A model generated the notes under the pieces. That model saw only the letters and a list, made by a program, of their open reading frames with translations. It was not told the origin of the DNA and searched no databases. DNA of 26,170 bases from a virus (taxonomy: Duplodnaviria; Caudoviricetes), in IMG/VR virus record IMGVR_UViG_3300020045_001001, positions 1 to 26,170 of that record; one strand, 5' to 3'. Of this stretch, positions 1-4,770 are shown piece by piece; the stretch's first letter is position 1, and every line of letters begins with the position of its first letter. The translations under genes were made by a program, and so were the position numbers.

Positions 1-39
1 GGGGTATCTCTTAATCGGAGTACCCCCTATAATTTTATT
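1..39 (+). terminator. Probable intrinsic terminator hairpin (upstream gene lies outside the window)
   Basis: GGGGTA-TCTC-ttaatc-GGAG-TACCCC imperfect stem at 1-26, followed by an A/T-rich tract (ctataattttatt). The left arm may be cut by the window edge. Confidence 0.5.
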
Positions 40-50
40 AAGGAATACAA

Positions 51-359
51 ATGCGCCCACAAGTAATTACGCAGTCTGGTACAGGAACCTCCGCATGGAT
101 TCCATTAGACTATAAACAAGCTCCATTTAATGTTGGTATGGGAGCCGTAGTAACAGGAACAATTACGTTTGATGTTGAACACACCTTCGATGATGTGTAT
201 GACTCTACCGTAACTCCAACTGCTTTTAAGAATTCTACGATTGTTGGGAAGACCGCGAACACAGATAGTAATTATGCTTTCCCTATTCGTGCTGTACGTA
301 TTAATAATACAGCAGGTACTGGTAGTGTAACATTGACAATCTTACAGGGAATACGATAA
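51..359 (+). CDS. Hypothetical virion protein, 102 aa, beta-rich (possible decoration or fibre adaptor)
   Basis: RBS AAGGA upstream of the ATG; TAATG overlap with the next gene; Thr/Gly/Val-rich; located in the structural arm. Confidence 0.7.
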   Translation: MRPQVITQSGTGTSAWIPLDYKQAPFNVGMGAVVTGTITFDVEHTFDDVYDSTVTPTAFKNSTIVGKTANTDSNYAFPIRAVRINNTAGTGSVTLTILQGIR

Positions 360-1822
360 TGACTGTCTCAGTTGGTAATGGGGTTTCTATAGGGAACTTA
401 GTTACTTCTACCGTCGATCCTGTCACCGGGGGGATTAGAACTTCGGTTGCTGGAAGCGAGACTGGCCGGAAGTACCTCGGCCTCGTGGCATCTCGCGGCC
501 AATGCCCCTCTGACAAGGGCAATGCAAATAAGCAGTGTATGGCCCGATCGAAGCACGTTGCGATGGCAAACATCGCGTCGCTGCAACTCGTGTACGCGAA
601 CTGGATGGCCTATCAGTCCGGGGGCGAGACGACGCCGGGGGCGGCATCGCAATACACAGCGTCGATCGAATACCCAGTCGGCACACTCACCCGAGTCACG
701 TTCTCGGGCGCAACGACTGGAATCGTCGCCGATGGTGACACGCTGGTTTCCGACGCTGTTGCGATTGATATTCCGAAGGGCACCGCATTCTACGTTCGCT
801 CGTGGCAGTTTAGCCCCGGGTCACTTGGCATCATGTTCATGCAGAACGCCGGGCTGAATAACGTCGTCGGCTCCGTGCCCGCGAGCGGCGAATGGTTCGC
901 GTTTGGAACCACGACGGCGGACTTGACGGGCGTAACGACGAATGCTAACAACGCGCTCAGTCCTGGACATTTCAAGCCGACGGCCATTATTGGCCTTACG
1001 GACAGCCCGACGATCATGCTGATTGGTGACTCGCGCCTGGAGGGCGGGATGGTGCGGGACACCATCCCCAATGCCTTCGGCGGCATTGGGCAGCTCGATC
1101 GATCTTTGGGCGGAAGGTTCGCCACGCTGAGCGTAGGCCGGGGCGGCGAGAAGGCGTCTGACGTTGTTGGCTCGGGGTCGGATAAGCGGGTCGCGCTGTC
1201 AAAATACGTGTCTGCCGTTGTCAGCAACTACGGAATCAACGATTGCCACAATGGAGCTGCTGCGGCCACCACCATCGCAAATCTAGCGACGCTGGCGGGG
1301 CGGATCAATAAGCCGTTCTATCAATGCACGGTATCCCCCGAATCCACATCGACGGACAACTGGTCGACGGTCGTGAATCAAACCCCTAACGCCGTAGGGA
1401 ACCCATTGCGCGTCGCTTTGAATGGGCTGATTCGCAATGGCCTGCCTGCCCCGTTTTCCGGGTACATCGAGATAGCAGACCCGACAGAATCCTCCCGCGA
1501 TTCTGGCGCGTGGAAAGTCCCCGGCGCGTCATTTACGTCGTCAGCAATTTCCGCCTCGGTAACGATCCCCGTTGCGTCACCCGTTGGGATTCTGGCCGTT
1601 GGGCAAACGCTGTTCGGCACAGGAATAACCGGAACGCCGATGATCATCGGGCTAAATTATTCAGCCGGCTCTGTGTCGTCTGTCGTCGTCAATGTCGCGC
1701 AGACGCTTACCGGCACCCCGGCTATAACGACGGCACACACGACTGATGGGATACACGGAGGGATGTCGGGGAATCAACTGATTGAGTTCTCACCAGCCTT
1801 CGCCAATTTCTTGCCTGCGTAA
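359..1822 (+). CDS. SGNH/GDSL hydrolase-domain spike or fibre protein (putative polysaccharide deacetylase), 487 aa
   Basis: All four SGNH blocks are visible: I MLIGDS, II SVGRGG, III SNYGIND, V TTDGIH. TAATG-coupled to the upstream gene. GC-rich (57-68% in three hand-counted 60-nt lines) after about position 440. Confidence 0.85.
   Translation: MTVSVGNGVSIGNLVTSTVDPVTGGIRTSVAGSETGRKYLGLVASRGQCPSDKGNANKQCMARSKHVAMANIASLQLVYANWMAYQSGGETTPGAASQYTASIEYPVGTLTRVTFSGATTGIVADGDTLVSDAVAIDIPKGTAFYVRSWQFSPGSLGIMFMQNAGLNNVVGSVPASGEWFAFGTTTADLTGVTTNANNALSPGHFKPTAIIGLTDSPTIMLIGDSRLEGGMVRDTIPNAFGGIGQLDRSLGGRFATLSVGRGGEKASDVVGSGSDKRVALSKYVSAVVSNYGINDCHNGAAAATTIANLATLAGRINKPFYQCTVSPESTSTDNWSTVVNQTPNAVGNPLRVALNGLIRNGLPAPFSGYIEIADPTESSRDSGAWKVPGASFTSSAISASVTIPVASPVGILAVGQTLFGTGITGTPMIIGLNYSAGSVSSVVVNVAQTLTGTPAITTAHTTDGIHGGMSGNQLIEFSPAFANFLPA
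423..440 (+). repeat. Left member of an imperfect inverted repeat pair (TCACCGGGGGGATTAGAA); putative recombination site
   Basis: 14/18 identity to the reverse complement of 1825-1842 (TCAGCGAGGGGCTTATAA). It lies at the AT-to-GC transition inside the SGNH gene (codons DPVTGGIR). Confidence 0.55.
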
Positions 1823-1824
1823 TT

Positions 1825-1842
1825 TTATAAGCCCCTCGCTGA
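1825..1842 (-). repeat. Right member of the imperfect inverted repeat pair (TTATAAGCCCCTCGCTGA); putative recombination site
   Basis: Begins 2 nt after the SGNH stop codon and ends 62 nt before the recombinase ATG; 14/18 inverted match to 423-440. Confidence 0.55.
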
Positions 1843-1904
1843 TCCGCGCCCGACCACAAACCGAAAATCGCACCTTCTCTGCACCATCCTAACTTTGGAG
1901 CATT

Positions 1905-2801
1905 ATGAATATATTATCTAATACTATAGGAATGTTTGTTCCAAAGTATAGGACCATACAGCAGTGGTCTGTTATATACAAATTATTAATAGAGGATAAA
2001 CCTATTTGTGATAAAACAAAAGCAAATAGACTAACAAGTTTACAATATATCACCACTAGATTTGGTGATTCTATTATAAGTAACATTCGTCCACATGAAA
2101 TTTCCAAGGCAATCTTAGAATTGTATAAAGAAAAGCCACAAAAAGCTAAACGAGTATTAATAGAAATCAAAGATTGTTTTGCAGAAGCTCTTATATATGG
2201 ATGGATCAATAGAAATCCAGCAATAGGTGTTAAGATTCCACCAGTAAGAGTTGTAAGAAAGCGATTGACTCTAGAACAGTGGTGGGGAATGTTAAAAGAC
2301 TCTATGATAGAAACACCTCCATGGGTTTCTAGAATGTTAGCTCTAGCCTTAATTACTGGGCAAAGACGTTCTGATTTAGTTAAGATGAGATTTTCTGATA
2401 TATGGGATGATGCCTTACATATAAAACAGCATAAGACAGGCACCCTTATAGCCTTACCATTGGATCTTACTTTAGATGCCATAAGTGTATCTCTTAGAGA
2501 TCTTATAGAAGATTGTAAATCTTATACCACTAAAGGAGAGACATTGCTACGTAAACATAATGGAGAGTCTTTGGGAGATGCCTCTCTTAGTGCTAGGTTT
2601 GAAATTACTAGAGAGAAGGCTTTAGGAAGTATACAACATCCACCGTCTTTACATGAATGCCGCTCACTTTCTGAACGCTTATACAGAGTACAAGGTATTA
2701 ATACAATGATGTTACTTGGGCATAAACACCAAACAATGACAGATTTATATAACGACGATAGGGGCCTATCTGATGGAGTATGGAAGGTACTTTCTATATG
2801 A
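1905..2801 (+). CDS. Tyrosine recombinase of the lambda Int family, lacking the N-terminal arm-binding domain, 298 aa
   Basis: Catalytic set R (ITGQRRSD), K (QHKTG), HxxR (HECRSLSERLY), H (LLGH), Y (DLYNDDRG) parallels lambda Int (HELRSLSARLY, LLGHK, YRDDRG). RBS GGAG; AT-rich. Confidence 0.93.
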   Translation: MNILSNTIGMFVPKYRTIQQWSVIYKLLIEDKPICDKTKANRLTSLQYITTRFGDSIISNIRPHEISKAILELYKEKPQKAKRVLIEIKDCFAEALIYGWINRNPAIGVKIPPVRVVRKRLTLEQWWGMLKDSMIETPPWVSRMLALALITGQRRSDLVKMRFSDIWDDALHIKQHKTGTLIALPLDLTLDAISVSLRDLIEDCKSYTTKGETLLRKHNGESLGDASLSARFEITREKALGSIQHPPSLHECRSLSERLYRVQGINTMMLLGHKHQTMTDLYNDDRGLSDGVWKVLSI

Positions 2802-3094
2802 GAAATTATTATGTATCTGGTCAGTGGAATTTAATCTGTGATTCATGTGGAAAGAAGATTAAAACCGGGAAGGCGAAGAAACGGTGGGATGGTTTAGTTG
2901 TCTGCCCAGAAGATTACGAGCAACGACATAGCCAAGACTTTGTTCGTGCTAGACAAGATAAGATTACAGTACCATTTACACGACCAAGGCCGCAAGACAT
3001 TTTTGTTGATGTTGTTTATGCGTGTACCACCGATGGCAAAACAGCAATAGCTAATAGGGCTGTTGCTGGTTGCTCTATTACAGGAACCACTTAA
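2798..3094 (+). CDS. Phage virion-module protein with Cys motif (CDSCG...WDGLVVC), 98 aa
   Basis: ATGA overlap with the recombinase stop; RBS GGAAGG; start revised from 2780 to 2798. Confidence 0.75.
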   Translation: MRNYYVSGQWNLICDSCGKKIKTGKAKKRWDGLVVCPEDYEQRHSQDFVRARQDKITVPFTRPRPQDIFVDVVYACTTDGKTAIANRAVAGCSITGTT

Positions 3095-3095
3095 T

Positions 3096-3554
3096 ATGGC
3101 TAGTACCGTATTTATAAATAATAACACAGTGATTGTAGCGGACTGGCTAAATGATGTTAACGCTGCTACATACTTGACAAGTGGTTCGGTATTAACTGCC
3201 GAGACGGTTGCCACGGAGTTAGCTAACAAAGTGCCCCGCACTACTCCTACAGGATCTGCAACATTACCATCAGGGACCACAGCGCAGAGGGATGCCACTC
3301 CTATAGATGGAATGATTCGTTATAATAGTACCCTCTTGCAGTTTGAGGGGTATTTTAACGGCTTATGGCAGAGTGTTGGTGGGGGACAGTTGTTGGGGAA
3401 TGCATCCATCAAAGGTATATTCTATAATGCTAATACTATTAGTGAAAACATCACAATCGTATCTGGAACAAATGGACATAGTGCTGGTCCAATAGCAATC
3501 ACACCGGGGTTCTCGGTTGTTATTGAACCTGGTGCAACATGGAAGGTACTATAA
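3096..3554 (+). CDS. Tail fibre-associated protein, 152 aa
   Basis: ATG 1 nt after the upstream stop, with AGGA upstream; the LPSGTTAQR...GMIRYN...FEGY motif is typical of phage fibre proteins. Confidence 0.75.
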   Translation: MASTVFINNNTVIVADWLNDVNAATYLTSGSVLTAETVATELANKVPRTTPTGSATLPSGTTAQRDATPIDGMIRYNSTLLQFEGYFNGLWQSVGGGQLLGNASIKGIFYNANTISENITIVSGTNGHSAGPIAITPGFSVVIEPGATWKVL

Positions 3555-4033
3555 TGAGTGTAAATATTGATGGTAATACGGGGATTGATGAGGTTCAGCC
3601 GGGTTGTGTTAAAGGAATCACTGACGGAAGCAATGTGCCTGCTGGGTATGTCGGAGAGATTTTAAGTGCGGCTGCTAGTGTTGCTGGAATCTTAAATGCA
3701 ACTGCGTTTACATCAGCAACCCTAAACCTCTCACCGGGGGTGTGGGATGTAAGCGGGTTGTTAATTGTTGGCGGCACAAGTGCTACTATCTCTCTGGCTT
3801 CTGCCGATGTTTCAAGCACAGCCTCAGCGCTAAATGCTGATAGTGTTGCGCTTCAGTTGGGGGGCAGCGCGTACACTACAGCGGCCACCGGCCCGTTAAG
3901 TATCCCGACAGTAACCCGTAGAGTAGTGCTGACGGCACCCGCCAACGTGTATCTAGTAGGAACTTTTTACTTTGGGTCCGGAACCCTGGCCACTAATGCA
4001 AGTGGTAAACTTACTGCTCGGAGGGCCGCATAA
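3554..4033 (+). CDS. Tail fibre or receptor-binding domain protein, 159 aa
   Basis: TAATG overlaps at both ends; G.TDGS...AGYVGE, LSPGVWDV and terminal ARR motifs resemble phage fibre C-terminal domains. Confidence 0.7.
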   Translation: MSVNIDGNTGIDEVQPGCVKGITDGSNVPAGYVGEILSAAASVAGILNATAFTSATLNLSPGVWDVSGLLIVGGTSATISLASADVSSTASALNADSVALQLGGSAYTTAATGPLSIPTVTRRVVLTAPANVYLVGTFYFGSGTLATNASGKLTARRAA

Positions 4034-4260
4034 TGGCAAATGATCTTCAACTCAATTCGATCCAGCTTGGTAACAACGCCGATCCTAGTAAGAACTACGT
4101 ACTCAAAGTTCCTTTGGTTGCCGATGGCACCCTGCGAATTGAACGGGGGGATGGGACAGGCCTCGGCAACTACGTTAACGATGCGGCAGCGGCCGCTGGG
4201 GGAGTTCCCCTGAATGGCCTGTACCGTAACGGTAGTCTGCTGATGACAAGGGTAGCGTAA
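4033..4260 (+). CDS. Small fibre-related protein, 75 aa
   Basis: TAATG coupling at both ends; C-terminal NDAAAAAGGVPLNGLYRNG resembles a fibre terminal motif. Confidence 0.7.
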   Translation: MANDLQLNSIQLGNNADPSKNYVLKVPLVADGTLRIERGDGTGLGNYVNDAAAAAGGVPLNGLYRNGSLLMTRVA

Positions 4261-4487
4261 TGGCAAACATAGGACTTAGAACGAACCCTGCCGGTGATGG
4301 TGGTGCTATTACCCTTGGCGGCACCGATGTGGTTAAGGTGGATGCCTCCAGTATAACAATCCCTGTTATTACCACGACTCAGAAAACTGCATTAGGCAAT
4401 GCAGCAGCCAGAATAGTGTTCGACTCTACTCTTGGAAAACTGTGTATCAACGATGGGGCTGGTTGGCAAACAGTGACCTCAGTATGA
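4260..4487 (+). CDS. Small fibre-related protein, 75 aa
   Basis: TAATG coupling; P..TTTQK.AL...IVFDSTLGKLC...G.GWQTVTS fibre-type motif. Confidence 0.7.
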   Translation: MANIGLRTNPAGDGGAITLGGTDVVKVDASSITIPVITTTQKTALGNAAARIVFDSTLGKLCINDGAGWQTVTSV

Positions 4488-4533
4488 GGCTCCAAGAGCT
4501 TCGCCACAATAATGAGCTATATTAGGAGAAAGT

Positions 4534-4770
4534 ATGAATGAACAAGACATTAGACGAGAGTTCGACTTTCTTCTACAGACCCATAGGGAAGATGAGGCAG
4601 AGCAGTTTGCCTTAATCCAAGCAGATATAAAACAATTACGCACGGATATGAGGGCTTTCACGGATGCTTGGCAACAAGCTCGTGGGGTAGTTACTTTTAT
4701 TAAGTGGGTAGTTAGTATCGCTGGAGGTATTACAGCCTTTTTACTATTTATTAAGGATCATATCAAATGA
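4534..4770 (+). CDS. Coiled-coil protein with a C-terminal transmembrane helix (holin-like or XhlA-like), 78 aa
   Basis: Strong RBS AGGAG; hydrophobic segment WVVSIAGGITAFLLFI near the C-terminus; ATGA overlap with the next gene. Confidence 0.65.
   Translation: MNEQDIRREFDFLLQTHREDEAEQFALIQADIKQLRTDMRAFTDAWQQARGVVTFIKWVVSIAGGITAFLLFIKDHIK

Follow-up and report, generated by a model that had tools for sequence, protein, structure and literature searches.

Putative exchange of enzyme-domain cassettes between two unlike recombinase-type sites in phage genes

How might a phage protein exchange its C-terminal domain at a precise point while keeping its N terminus? The question is raised by a 26,170-nt virus record (Caudoviricetes; IMGVR_UViG_3300020045_001001), here called the window, in which gene 359-1822 is a 21-codon phage anchor joined in frame, at a short site (A), to a GC-rich cassette for a predicted SGNH esterase. 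A second site (B) closes the cassette, and a tyrosine recombinase gene follows. The original prediction for this stretch had proposed a foreign SGNH cassette between inverted sites, next to an arm-less lambda-type integrase, that is exchanged between phages by double crossover. We compared the window with other loci and proteins (labeled L and P, respectively). The comparison points to a real and widespread exchange system, the mechanism of which we infer.

Cassettes replaced between two unlike sites

How sharply is the cassette replaced? One relative of the window, L001, is 96% identical to it over 1-439—stopping inside the interval 423-440 in which a breakpoint had been predicted—then runs into a 510-aa frame without relation to that of the window, has no recombinase, and becomes homologous again at 2801. 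Three other relatives (L003, L004, and L005) share the anchor and keep site A, running on into three more unrelated C termini, with a B-type site closing each cassette. These four belong to 13 viral loci that encode relatives (63-100% identical) of the 102-aa gene upstream of the anchor; of the other nine, five carry another gene in this place, L011 and L012 begin with an anchor-like stretch but have no site A, and two do not extend far enough for a judgment. Sequence comparison establishes the same replacement, with breakpoints at the sites, in other phages. The flanks of L185 and L242 are 98% identical on both sides and those of L214 and L221 are 98% and 100% identical, the cargo being unrelated in each pair. 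Among upstream alignments that reach A, 26/33 stop 11-25 nt past the start of the spacer, and 23/32 downstream alignments begin no more than 6 nt to either side of B; only one alignment in each set extends well into the cargo. These breakpoint pairs are not independent, many loci coming from few samples.

Cargo is also shared where its surroundings are not. In L162 and L173, the cargo is 77% identical from A-2 to B-5 between flanks without similarity, and in total six of seven cargo-sharing pairs share no flank, the five besides L162/L173 matching over most or part of the cargo. Composition follows a similar division: across 86 cassettes, cargo GC spans 0.45-0.62 and flank GC 0.37-0.69 (slope 0.2), while recombinase GC in 19 loci tracks the flanks (r 0.91) and not the cargo (r 0.05). 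By composition, the enzyme reads as resident and the cargo as foreign.

What do the two sites look like? Scanned for by independent patterns, the in-gene site A was found at 45 loci and the downstream site B at 90, and merging all loci left 88 distinct cassettes; pairing was counted only at loci with at least 2.5 kb on either side, and two false pairings (L043 and L183) were left out of most cassette counts. Loci found by A alone had a B in the same orientation downstream in 24/28 cases, compared with 0, 0, and 0 of 28 at three control positions; loci found by B alone had an A upstream in 34/47, compared with 2, 0, and 2 of 47. The site logos—from which L001 and the window were omitted, their sites having been placed by hand and the B position in L001 being arbitrary—read AATCCTG-TCACCGG-GGGGATT for A and AATCCCC-TCWKCAC-NANGAT for B. 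In both, inverted arms flank a 7-nt spacer, and the strongest arms point toward the cargo. The spacer is TCACCGG in 81/84 A sites and one of four TCWKCAC forms in 80/83 B sites, both counts being biased by the search patterns; the two spacers agree at their left edge (the first two bases, TC) and not at the right. We therefore have two distinct sites, best read as heterospecific arm-spacer-arm sites and not as one inverted repeat, each probably an inverted pair of recombinase-binding arms around its spacer.

Is site A held in place as protein or as DNA? In 101 loci found without using site A (a few contigs are possibly counted twice), the peptide that A encodes lies upstream in 50 and downstream in 6. 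Its synonymous codons are fixed—ACC in 48/54 hits and GGG in 47/54, against frequencies of 0.23 and 0.20 in cargo genes—and site A is thus conserved as DNA. The fusion is in frame: the anchor frame passes through A to a stop codon at -11 to +5 of B in 58/85 cassettes, and it ends earlier in 27, several of which hold further genes. In L014, L032, L119, L216, and L249, site A is followed by a related peptide of 33-36 aa and a stop; in the first three, a separate gene, which has a start of its own, encodes the main cargo. At the right end, the center of spacer B (variable positions 3-4) differs in 12/24 pairs with a common downstream flank, as expected if spacer B can travel with the cassette. 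The check proposed in the original prediction thus came out in its favor, with the sites beside recombinase homologues conserved and the intervening DNA varying.

Departures from the simple layout are few. Extra sites at the profile threshold occur in five loci besides the window, and a tandem second cargo occurs only in L225, where (positions 3031-4520) an SGNH cargo 33% identical over 332 aa to that of the window is closed by a hybrid junction that combines a B arm with an A spacer; a second cargo of 90 aa comes next, and a normal B after it. The pattern of B arm plus A spacer had 15 matches, consisting of several ordinary A sites, this one hybrid junction, and apparent chance matches. Immediately before the recombinase in L025, L035, and L022, two B sites in direct repeat enclose small genes (85-177 aa), of which that in L025 recurs after B in L263; mini-cassettes may gather at site B in the manner of an integron. 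L263 (102-3290) also carries two divergently transcribed cassettes in one phage, each ended by a B site. A pattern for an empty site, which is narrow, had ten matches; none resembled cassette loci by tblastx, and they were treated as chance.

Where do the crossover points lie in the window itself? Site A is its best match to the family profile (score 38.6) and is translated in frame as D-P-V-T-G-G-I. The original prediction had identified 18-mers at 423-440 and 1842-1825, 14/18 identical, as one imperfect inverted repeat. The coordinates and the identity hold, as do the distances given at the right end (2 nt from the stop codon to the 18-mer and 62 nt from there to the recombinase start). The single inverted repeat does not, as only the inner arms of ~10 nt are inverted and the 7-nt spacers differ. 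Taken alone the match is weak, and its reality rests on the comparison across loci: at least 14/18 was reached in 2.5% of 2,000 shuffles of the two boundary boxes, 81 inverted matches of that quality (both directions counted) fall within 359-2801, and the pair was not among the 25 longest ranked by a repeat finder.

The right-hand site had been set at 1825-1842, and it moved. An arm does stand at 1826-1835, the usual position of the B arm among cassettes, but the consensus spacer is found at 1878-1884, and the right crossover point is likely at about 1871-1891. One short contig suggests a breakpoint at 1877/1878, in this second spacer: a 151-nt contig from another sample (depth 2) equals 1877-1934 bar one difference, and upstream of the match it carries a different cassette end with a stop codon and a canonical B arm. 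The contig comes from one sequencing run that held 5% of the words and covered 5/30 bins of 1-4000, and only its loose end at 1877 was used. Similarly split B sites occur in L005, L014, L015, and L016.

The recombinase and the fused proteins

What kind of enzyme accompanies the sites? The recombinase has two domains, PF22022 and PF00589, and its structural model folds like lambda Int 75-356, the best fold matches being lambda Int (E 5e-21), which agrees with the arm-less lambda-type integrase of the original prediction; the integron enzyme 2a3v is a far poorer fold match (E 7e-7). The catalytic set R154, K177, H250, R253, H273, and Y282 is intact and is invariant in 57 aligned proteins. The best 120 of 554 homologues are 288-320 aa long and 56-66% identical (the search covered 163-522 aa), the closest annotated relatives are lambda-type integrases (34-38% identical), and named genomes with close homologues are mostly Betaproteobacteria (Dechloromonas, Azonexus, Rhodoferax, Denitromonas, and Zoogloea). 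A search of viral contigs with the single recombinase sequence gave no match; an alignment-based search gave 52 viral, 48 metagenome, and 31 genome-collection loci. Where the recombinase gene was near-complete and at least 40% identical, a motif match of at least 12/17 lay within 200 nt upstream in 58/88 loci.

Site type and recombinase clade go together in sequence. In a quick tree of 77 proteins, with the window's own protein on a long branch, one clade of 38 recombinases (support 96) has a TCWKCAC site upstream in 34/38 members and holds all 34 such loci. A second spacer type (CTCGCGC or GTTGCGC) occurs at 16 loci, all outside that clade, and 27 of the 77 proteins have no site by pattern. 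The second recombinase group (L039, L040, L043, L046, L078, L104, L121, and others) has the same arms with other spacers, and in L039, L078, and L121 the recombinase is followed by a B site on the other strand. Its site A was seen in just 3/30 loci inspected (L039, L040, and L043), and the group is incompletely described. Recombinase remnants lie directly after B in L196, L271, and L207; two consist of a C-terminal part that sets in sharply at B, at a point where the coding sequence of the gene itself is similar to B, and one has an internal deletion. Such broken genes beside B show secondary loss.

What does the cassette of the window encode? The compositional step in the original prediction—a phage-like start, a GC-rich block, and an AT-rich recombinase—was recovered both by GC per 50 nt (19-21/50 before 425 and 26-34/50 beyond) and by third-position GC (GC3), which is 0.36 in the first codons, 0.69 in 425-1822, and 0.23 in the recombinase. 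The last value matches this phage, in which 12/13 other genes tested have GC3 of 0.27-0.41 (one 75-aa gene has 0.54), and the cassette is the outlier. The SGNH assignment, equally, is upheld by a match to phrog_8480 (E 3e-47) and an SGNH fold; the protein of gene 359-1822 has no match in Pfam. In the model, the anchor is disordered in the monomer and the cargo fold is nearest to polyvinyl alcohol esterase and carbohydrate acetylesterases (E 4.5e-17 to 1e-12). The GDS nucleophile motif (G223-D224-S225), block III N294, and the DxxH motif (D463-G-I-H466) are present, and S225, N294, D463, and H466 are kept in 46 homologues. A segment of ~65 residues modeled at low confidence (residues ~391-458; ~1530-1735), right before DxxH, is missing in the closest homologues. 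Two of 47 homologues of the cargo (P0125 and P0126) have an A-like peptide after differing N termini and then the same cargo start.

How diverse is the cargo, and where would it be displayed? The 72 cargo frames fall into 45 groups. Among the 71 other than that of the window, Pfam identifies 22 SGNH/GDSL, 3 polysaccharide deacetylase, and 2 beta-helix cargoes and one each of GH5, rhamnosidase, CotH kinase, fn3, and BclA_C. The CotH-family kinase is the cargo of L156 and is no carbohydrate enzyme. Among the anchors scanned (35 of 40 of at least 50 aa), three match the head decoration family phrog_122 and two phrog_673. Portal, terminase, capsid, and neck genes make up most of the identified upstream neighbors (64 of 74 scanned), and three are tail tube genes; some homologues are annotated as minor tail proteins. 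Identified anchors and neighbors point mostly to the head module and not to tail fibers; head display is at least as likely as tail display, and the fusion is likely a virion-surface enzyme acting on host polysaccharide. The label of receptor module in the original prediction is a conjecture, because most cargoes are enzymes that modify polysaccharides and most of the anchors and neighbors identified are head or packaging genes.

Models of exchange

How could such sites exchange a cassette? Lambda-type tyrosine recombinases require matching bases beside each cleavage site and tolerate central mismatches. Because the spacers of A and B match at the left edge only, and the center of spacer B is variable, like would be expected to recombine with like, predicting a two-crossover exchange through a cointegrate. 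We consider this the probable route: partner phages would meet by coinfection or by superinfection of a lysogen, A x A would fuse the two genomes, B x B would resolve the cointegrate, and the unlike spacers of A and B would disfavor deletion or inversion. The recombinase would remain with its phage and often be provided in trans, and the fused protein, carried on the virion, would act on polysaccharide at the host surface. Double-crossover exchange between genomes, as first proposed for the window, fits best with conserved sites, a variable interior, and relatives that break at 439. A similar replacement of single dif modules through a cointegrate, with matching spacers on each side, has been proposed (PMC13141974).

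Several observations weigh against this two-crossover model and the picture of surface enzymes built on it. Most cassettes lack a nearby enzyme, which makes a supply in trans necessary, and we take the enzyme to be so supplied: a recombinase match lies within 400 nt in only 7/69 B loci (one of them a fragment), none was found in 10 cassette-bearing records (8 of them at least 90% complete; two positive controls were found), and none was found in the incomplete records of L185, L242, and L214. Where a recombinase gene follows, B shows little conservation in its outer arm, and the B of the window is degenerate, a copy that may be partly decayed or inactive. Between unrelated flanks, the highest cargo identity found at the DNA level is 77%, too low to be an example of very recent transfer between distant phages. 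A and B have their first two spacer bases in common, and the hybrid junction in L225 shows that they can recombine or be joined. Finally, 39/71 cargo frames have no Pfam match, and 30/35 anchors scanned match no family.

Could cassettes instead move as circles? The recombinase would then join A x B through the two shared bases, free a cassette circle, and insert another into the empty site or beside a resident cassette. Both spacers begin with TC, the strongest arms face the cassette interior, L225 has its hybrid junction between two cargoes, and small genes lie between two B sites in L025, L035, and L022; for IntDOT, 2 bp of homology are reported to be enough for the first exchange (PMC2034462), a precedent for such joining. 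We nonetheless think this route unlikely. No empty site turned up among the ten pattern matches (although empty phages may be unfit, and the pattern is narrow), and a B arm with an A spacer stands at the right end of a cassette in only 1/15 matches. Heteroduplex resolution should mix spacers at both ends, yet the sites upstream of the recombinase have B-type spacers. The units between two B sites fit like-with-like recombination equally well.

Alternatively, homologous recombination of the host or the phage (through RecA or Red-like annealing proteins) might use the sites as short stretches of shared homology, with the recombinase a passenger or a relic. The absence of the enzyme from most cassette-bearing phages, its broken genes beside B in L196, L271, and L207, and the swaps between (incomplete) records in which it was not found would all be explained. 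What makes this quite improbable is the structure of the sites and of the enzyme. Inverted arms around a short spacer are the layout of tyrosine-recombinase core sites, and the sites here, of ~21 nt with a 7-nt spacer, have it; B stands directly upstream of the recombinase in 34/38 members of its clade and changes with the clade; and all six catalytic residues are invariant in the 57 aligned proteins.

Inversion, in which the recombinase would turn around the DNA between inverted sites and so change the C terminus or silence the gene, is more doubtful still, and we give it very little weight. The inner arms are inverted, the inverted 7-mer at 1836-1842 of the window matches spacer A at 5/7, and the Rin system shares the enzyme architecture (PMC6109161). 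The spacers of the family, however, mismatch in inverted orientation, an oppositely oriented B was found in 0/28 A loci, the inverted frame in the window closes after ~14 codons, and near-identical phages differ by replacement rather than inversion. The original prediction had already judged simple inversion unproductive, rightly so, since no support for inversion emerged and the opposite strand of the window encodes no alternative C terminus. That the enzyme is an ordinary prophage integrase, with an att site, next to a moron is least credible of all and largely refuted: lambda-type integrases are the closest annotated relatives (34-38% identical), but the arm-binding domain is absent, the sites have phage structural or packaging genes on either side and no phage-host boundary, and the sites enclose the C-terminal part of a single gene.

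Setting, known systems, and meaning

What surrounds the cassette in the window (Table 1)? Head-tail adaptor, head closure, and endolysin genes lie in its left part (PHROG matches). The upstream context gene has no match in Pfam or PHROG, and in L001 its copy sits two genes after the major head protein gene. Beyond the recombinase, small tail-fiber-like genes at ~3000-4540 are also replaced in L001 (window 2801-4540 against L001:4424-6290); this second variable block has no A or B sites. A weak A-like match at 3723-3748 (score 18.4 against 38.6 for site A), within ORF 3554-4033 in another frame and close to a local rise in GC, is probably due to chance. A sigma-70-like promoter match at 333-360 (11/12), whose second hexamer overlaps the start codon at 359, is possibly due to chance as well; 8 such sites were found against 5.2 expected.

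Table 1. Features of the exchange locus and its neighbors in the window
Feature	Coordinates	Strand	Remarks
Upstream context gene	51..359	+	102 aa; conserved; outside the cassette; no family
Constant anchor, codons 1-21	359..421	+	Phage-like composition; GC3 0.36
Site A	416..436	+	Outer arm 416-422; spacer TCACCGG 423-429; inner arm 430-436(439)
Exchangeable cassette	430..1877	+	Residues ~25-487; predicted beta-sandwich plus SGNH esterase domain
B-type inner arm	1826..1842	+	Arm 1826-1835 directly after stop, then nonconsensus 7-mer; arm-profile score 12.5
Likely site B	1871..1891	+	Consensus spacer TCTGCAC 1878-1884; degenerate arms; best B-profile match in window (12.7)
Tyrosine recombinase	1905..2801	+	298 aa; lambda-Int core-binding and catalytic domains; no arm-binding domain
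Downstream context gene	2798..3094	+	Conserved; homology to L001 restarts at 2801

Is such a system already known? A literature search, whose coverage mostly left out subscription journals, found no description of it. Two known systems come nearest. In the pdif/dif modules of Acinetobacter plasmids, as here, modules lie between paired tyrosine-recombinase sites, (near-)identical spacers are required, and single modules are replaced; those modules, however, use host XerC and XerD, two different arms, and 6-bp spacers that vary by site, and they move whole genes in plasmid arrays (PMC13141974). The phage system has a single lambda-type enzyme encoded by the phage, a single arm sequence, and two 7-nt spacers that are fixed, and its in-frame crossover yields a fusion protein; replacement between matching left and right spacers is seen in both, and XerC/XerD sites with a 6-bp spacer are not found here. 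The Rin shufflon of Bifidobacterium prophages likewise has an arm-less phage tyrosine recombinase, a constant N terminus with a variable C terminus, and a second site right after the stop codon, but it uses identical 11-bp sites and inverts stored C termini of 95-100 residues within one genome (PMC6109161). Here the sites differ, no alternatives are stored, cargoes typically have 400-700 residues, and the variation is between genomes; the in-gene fusion of constant and variable parts recalls shufflons and the Rin, Gin, Cin, and Min systems, whose identical inverted sites and stored C termini are absent.

Other comparisons are looser. In integrons, promoterless cassettes form a pool and are moved by a stationary tyrosine recombinase. 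The stationary recombinase, the shared cassette pool, and the small extra genes gathering at site B resemble this arrangement, but the phage system has no attC-like hairpin sites (judged without an attC model) and no IntI, its enzyme is nearer lambda Int in fold, its sites are 21-nt core-type sites, and usually one main cassette is replaced and fused in frame, not stacked. In engineered recombinase-mediated cassette exchange, a laboratory design, one enzyme acts on heterospecific lox or FRT sites whose incompatible spacers bound an exchangeable cassette; no natural phage example of heterospecific-site exchange turned up in literature listings. In CTnDOT, the crossover regions share only 2 bp beside the cleavage site, as A and B do, but that element carries its integrase and its targets vary (PMC2034462), whereas in the phages the moved unit does not include the recombinase and the two spacers are fixed. 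The purpose is thus shared with the Rin shufflon and the likely chemistry with pdif modules, yet defining features of both, and of integrons, are missing.

What would the system mean for phages? We lean toward a natural cassette-exchange network in which many unrelated phages of Betaproteobacteria share a socket (A in frame, B after the stop) and a communal library of enzyme domains, with the arm-less integrase of a minority, acting in trans, swapping domains onto virion anchors. Precise swaps of depolymerase or receptor domains between phages are usually credited to chance or to homologous recombination; here the swap points are known to a few bases, a candidate enzyme is adjacent, and the same socket recurs across flank GC of 0.37-0.69. 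One small protein and two sites of 21 nt would be enough for a direct test of domain exchange, and the sites serve as a tag for a large set of predicted surface-active enzyme domains (72 cargoes in 45 groups). A compact recombinase with natural heterospecific, frame-keeping sites could also serve as a cloning tool. If the reading is true, the network would be a route to diversity in host interaction beside shufflons and diversity-generating retroelements, with at least two groups of site specificity.

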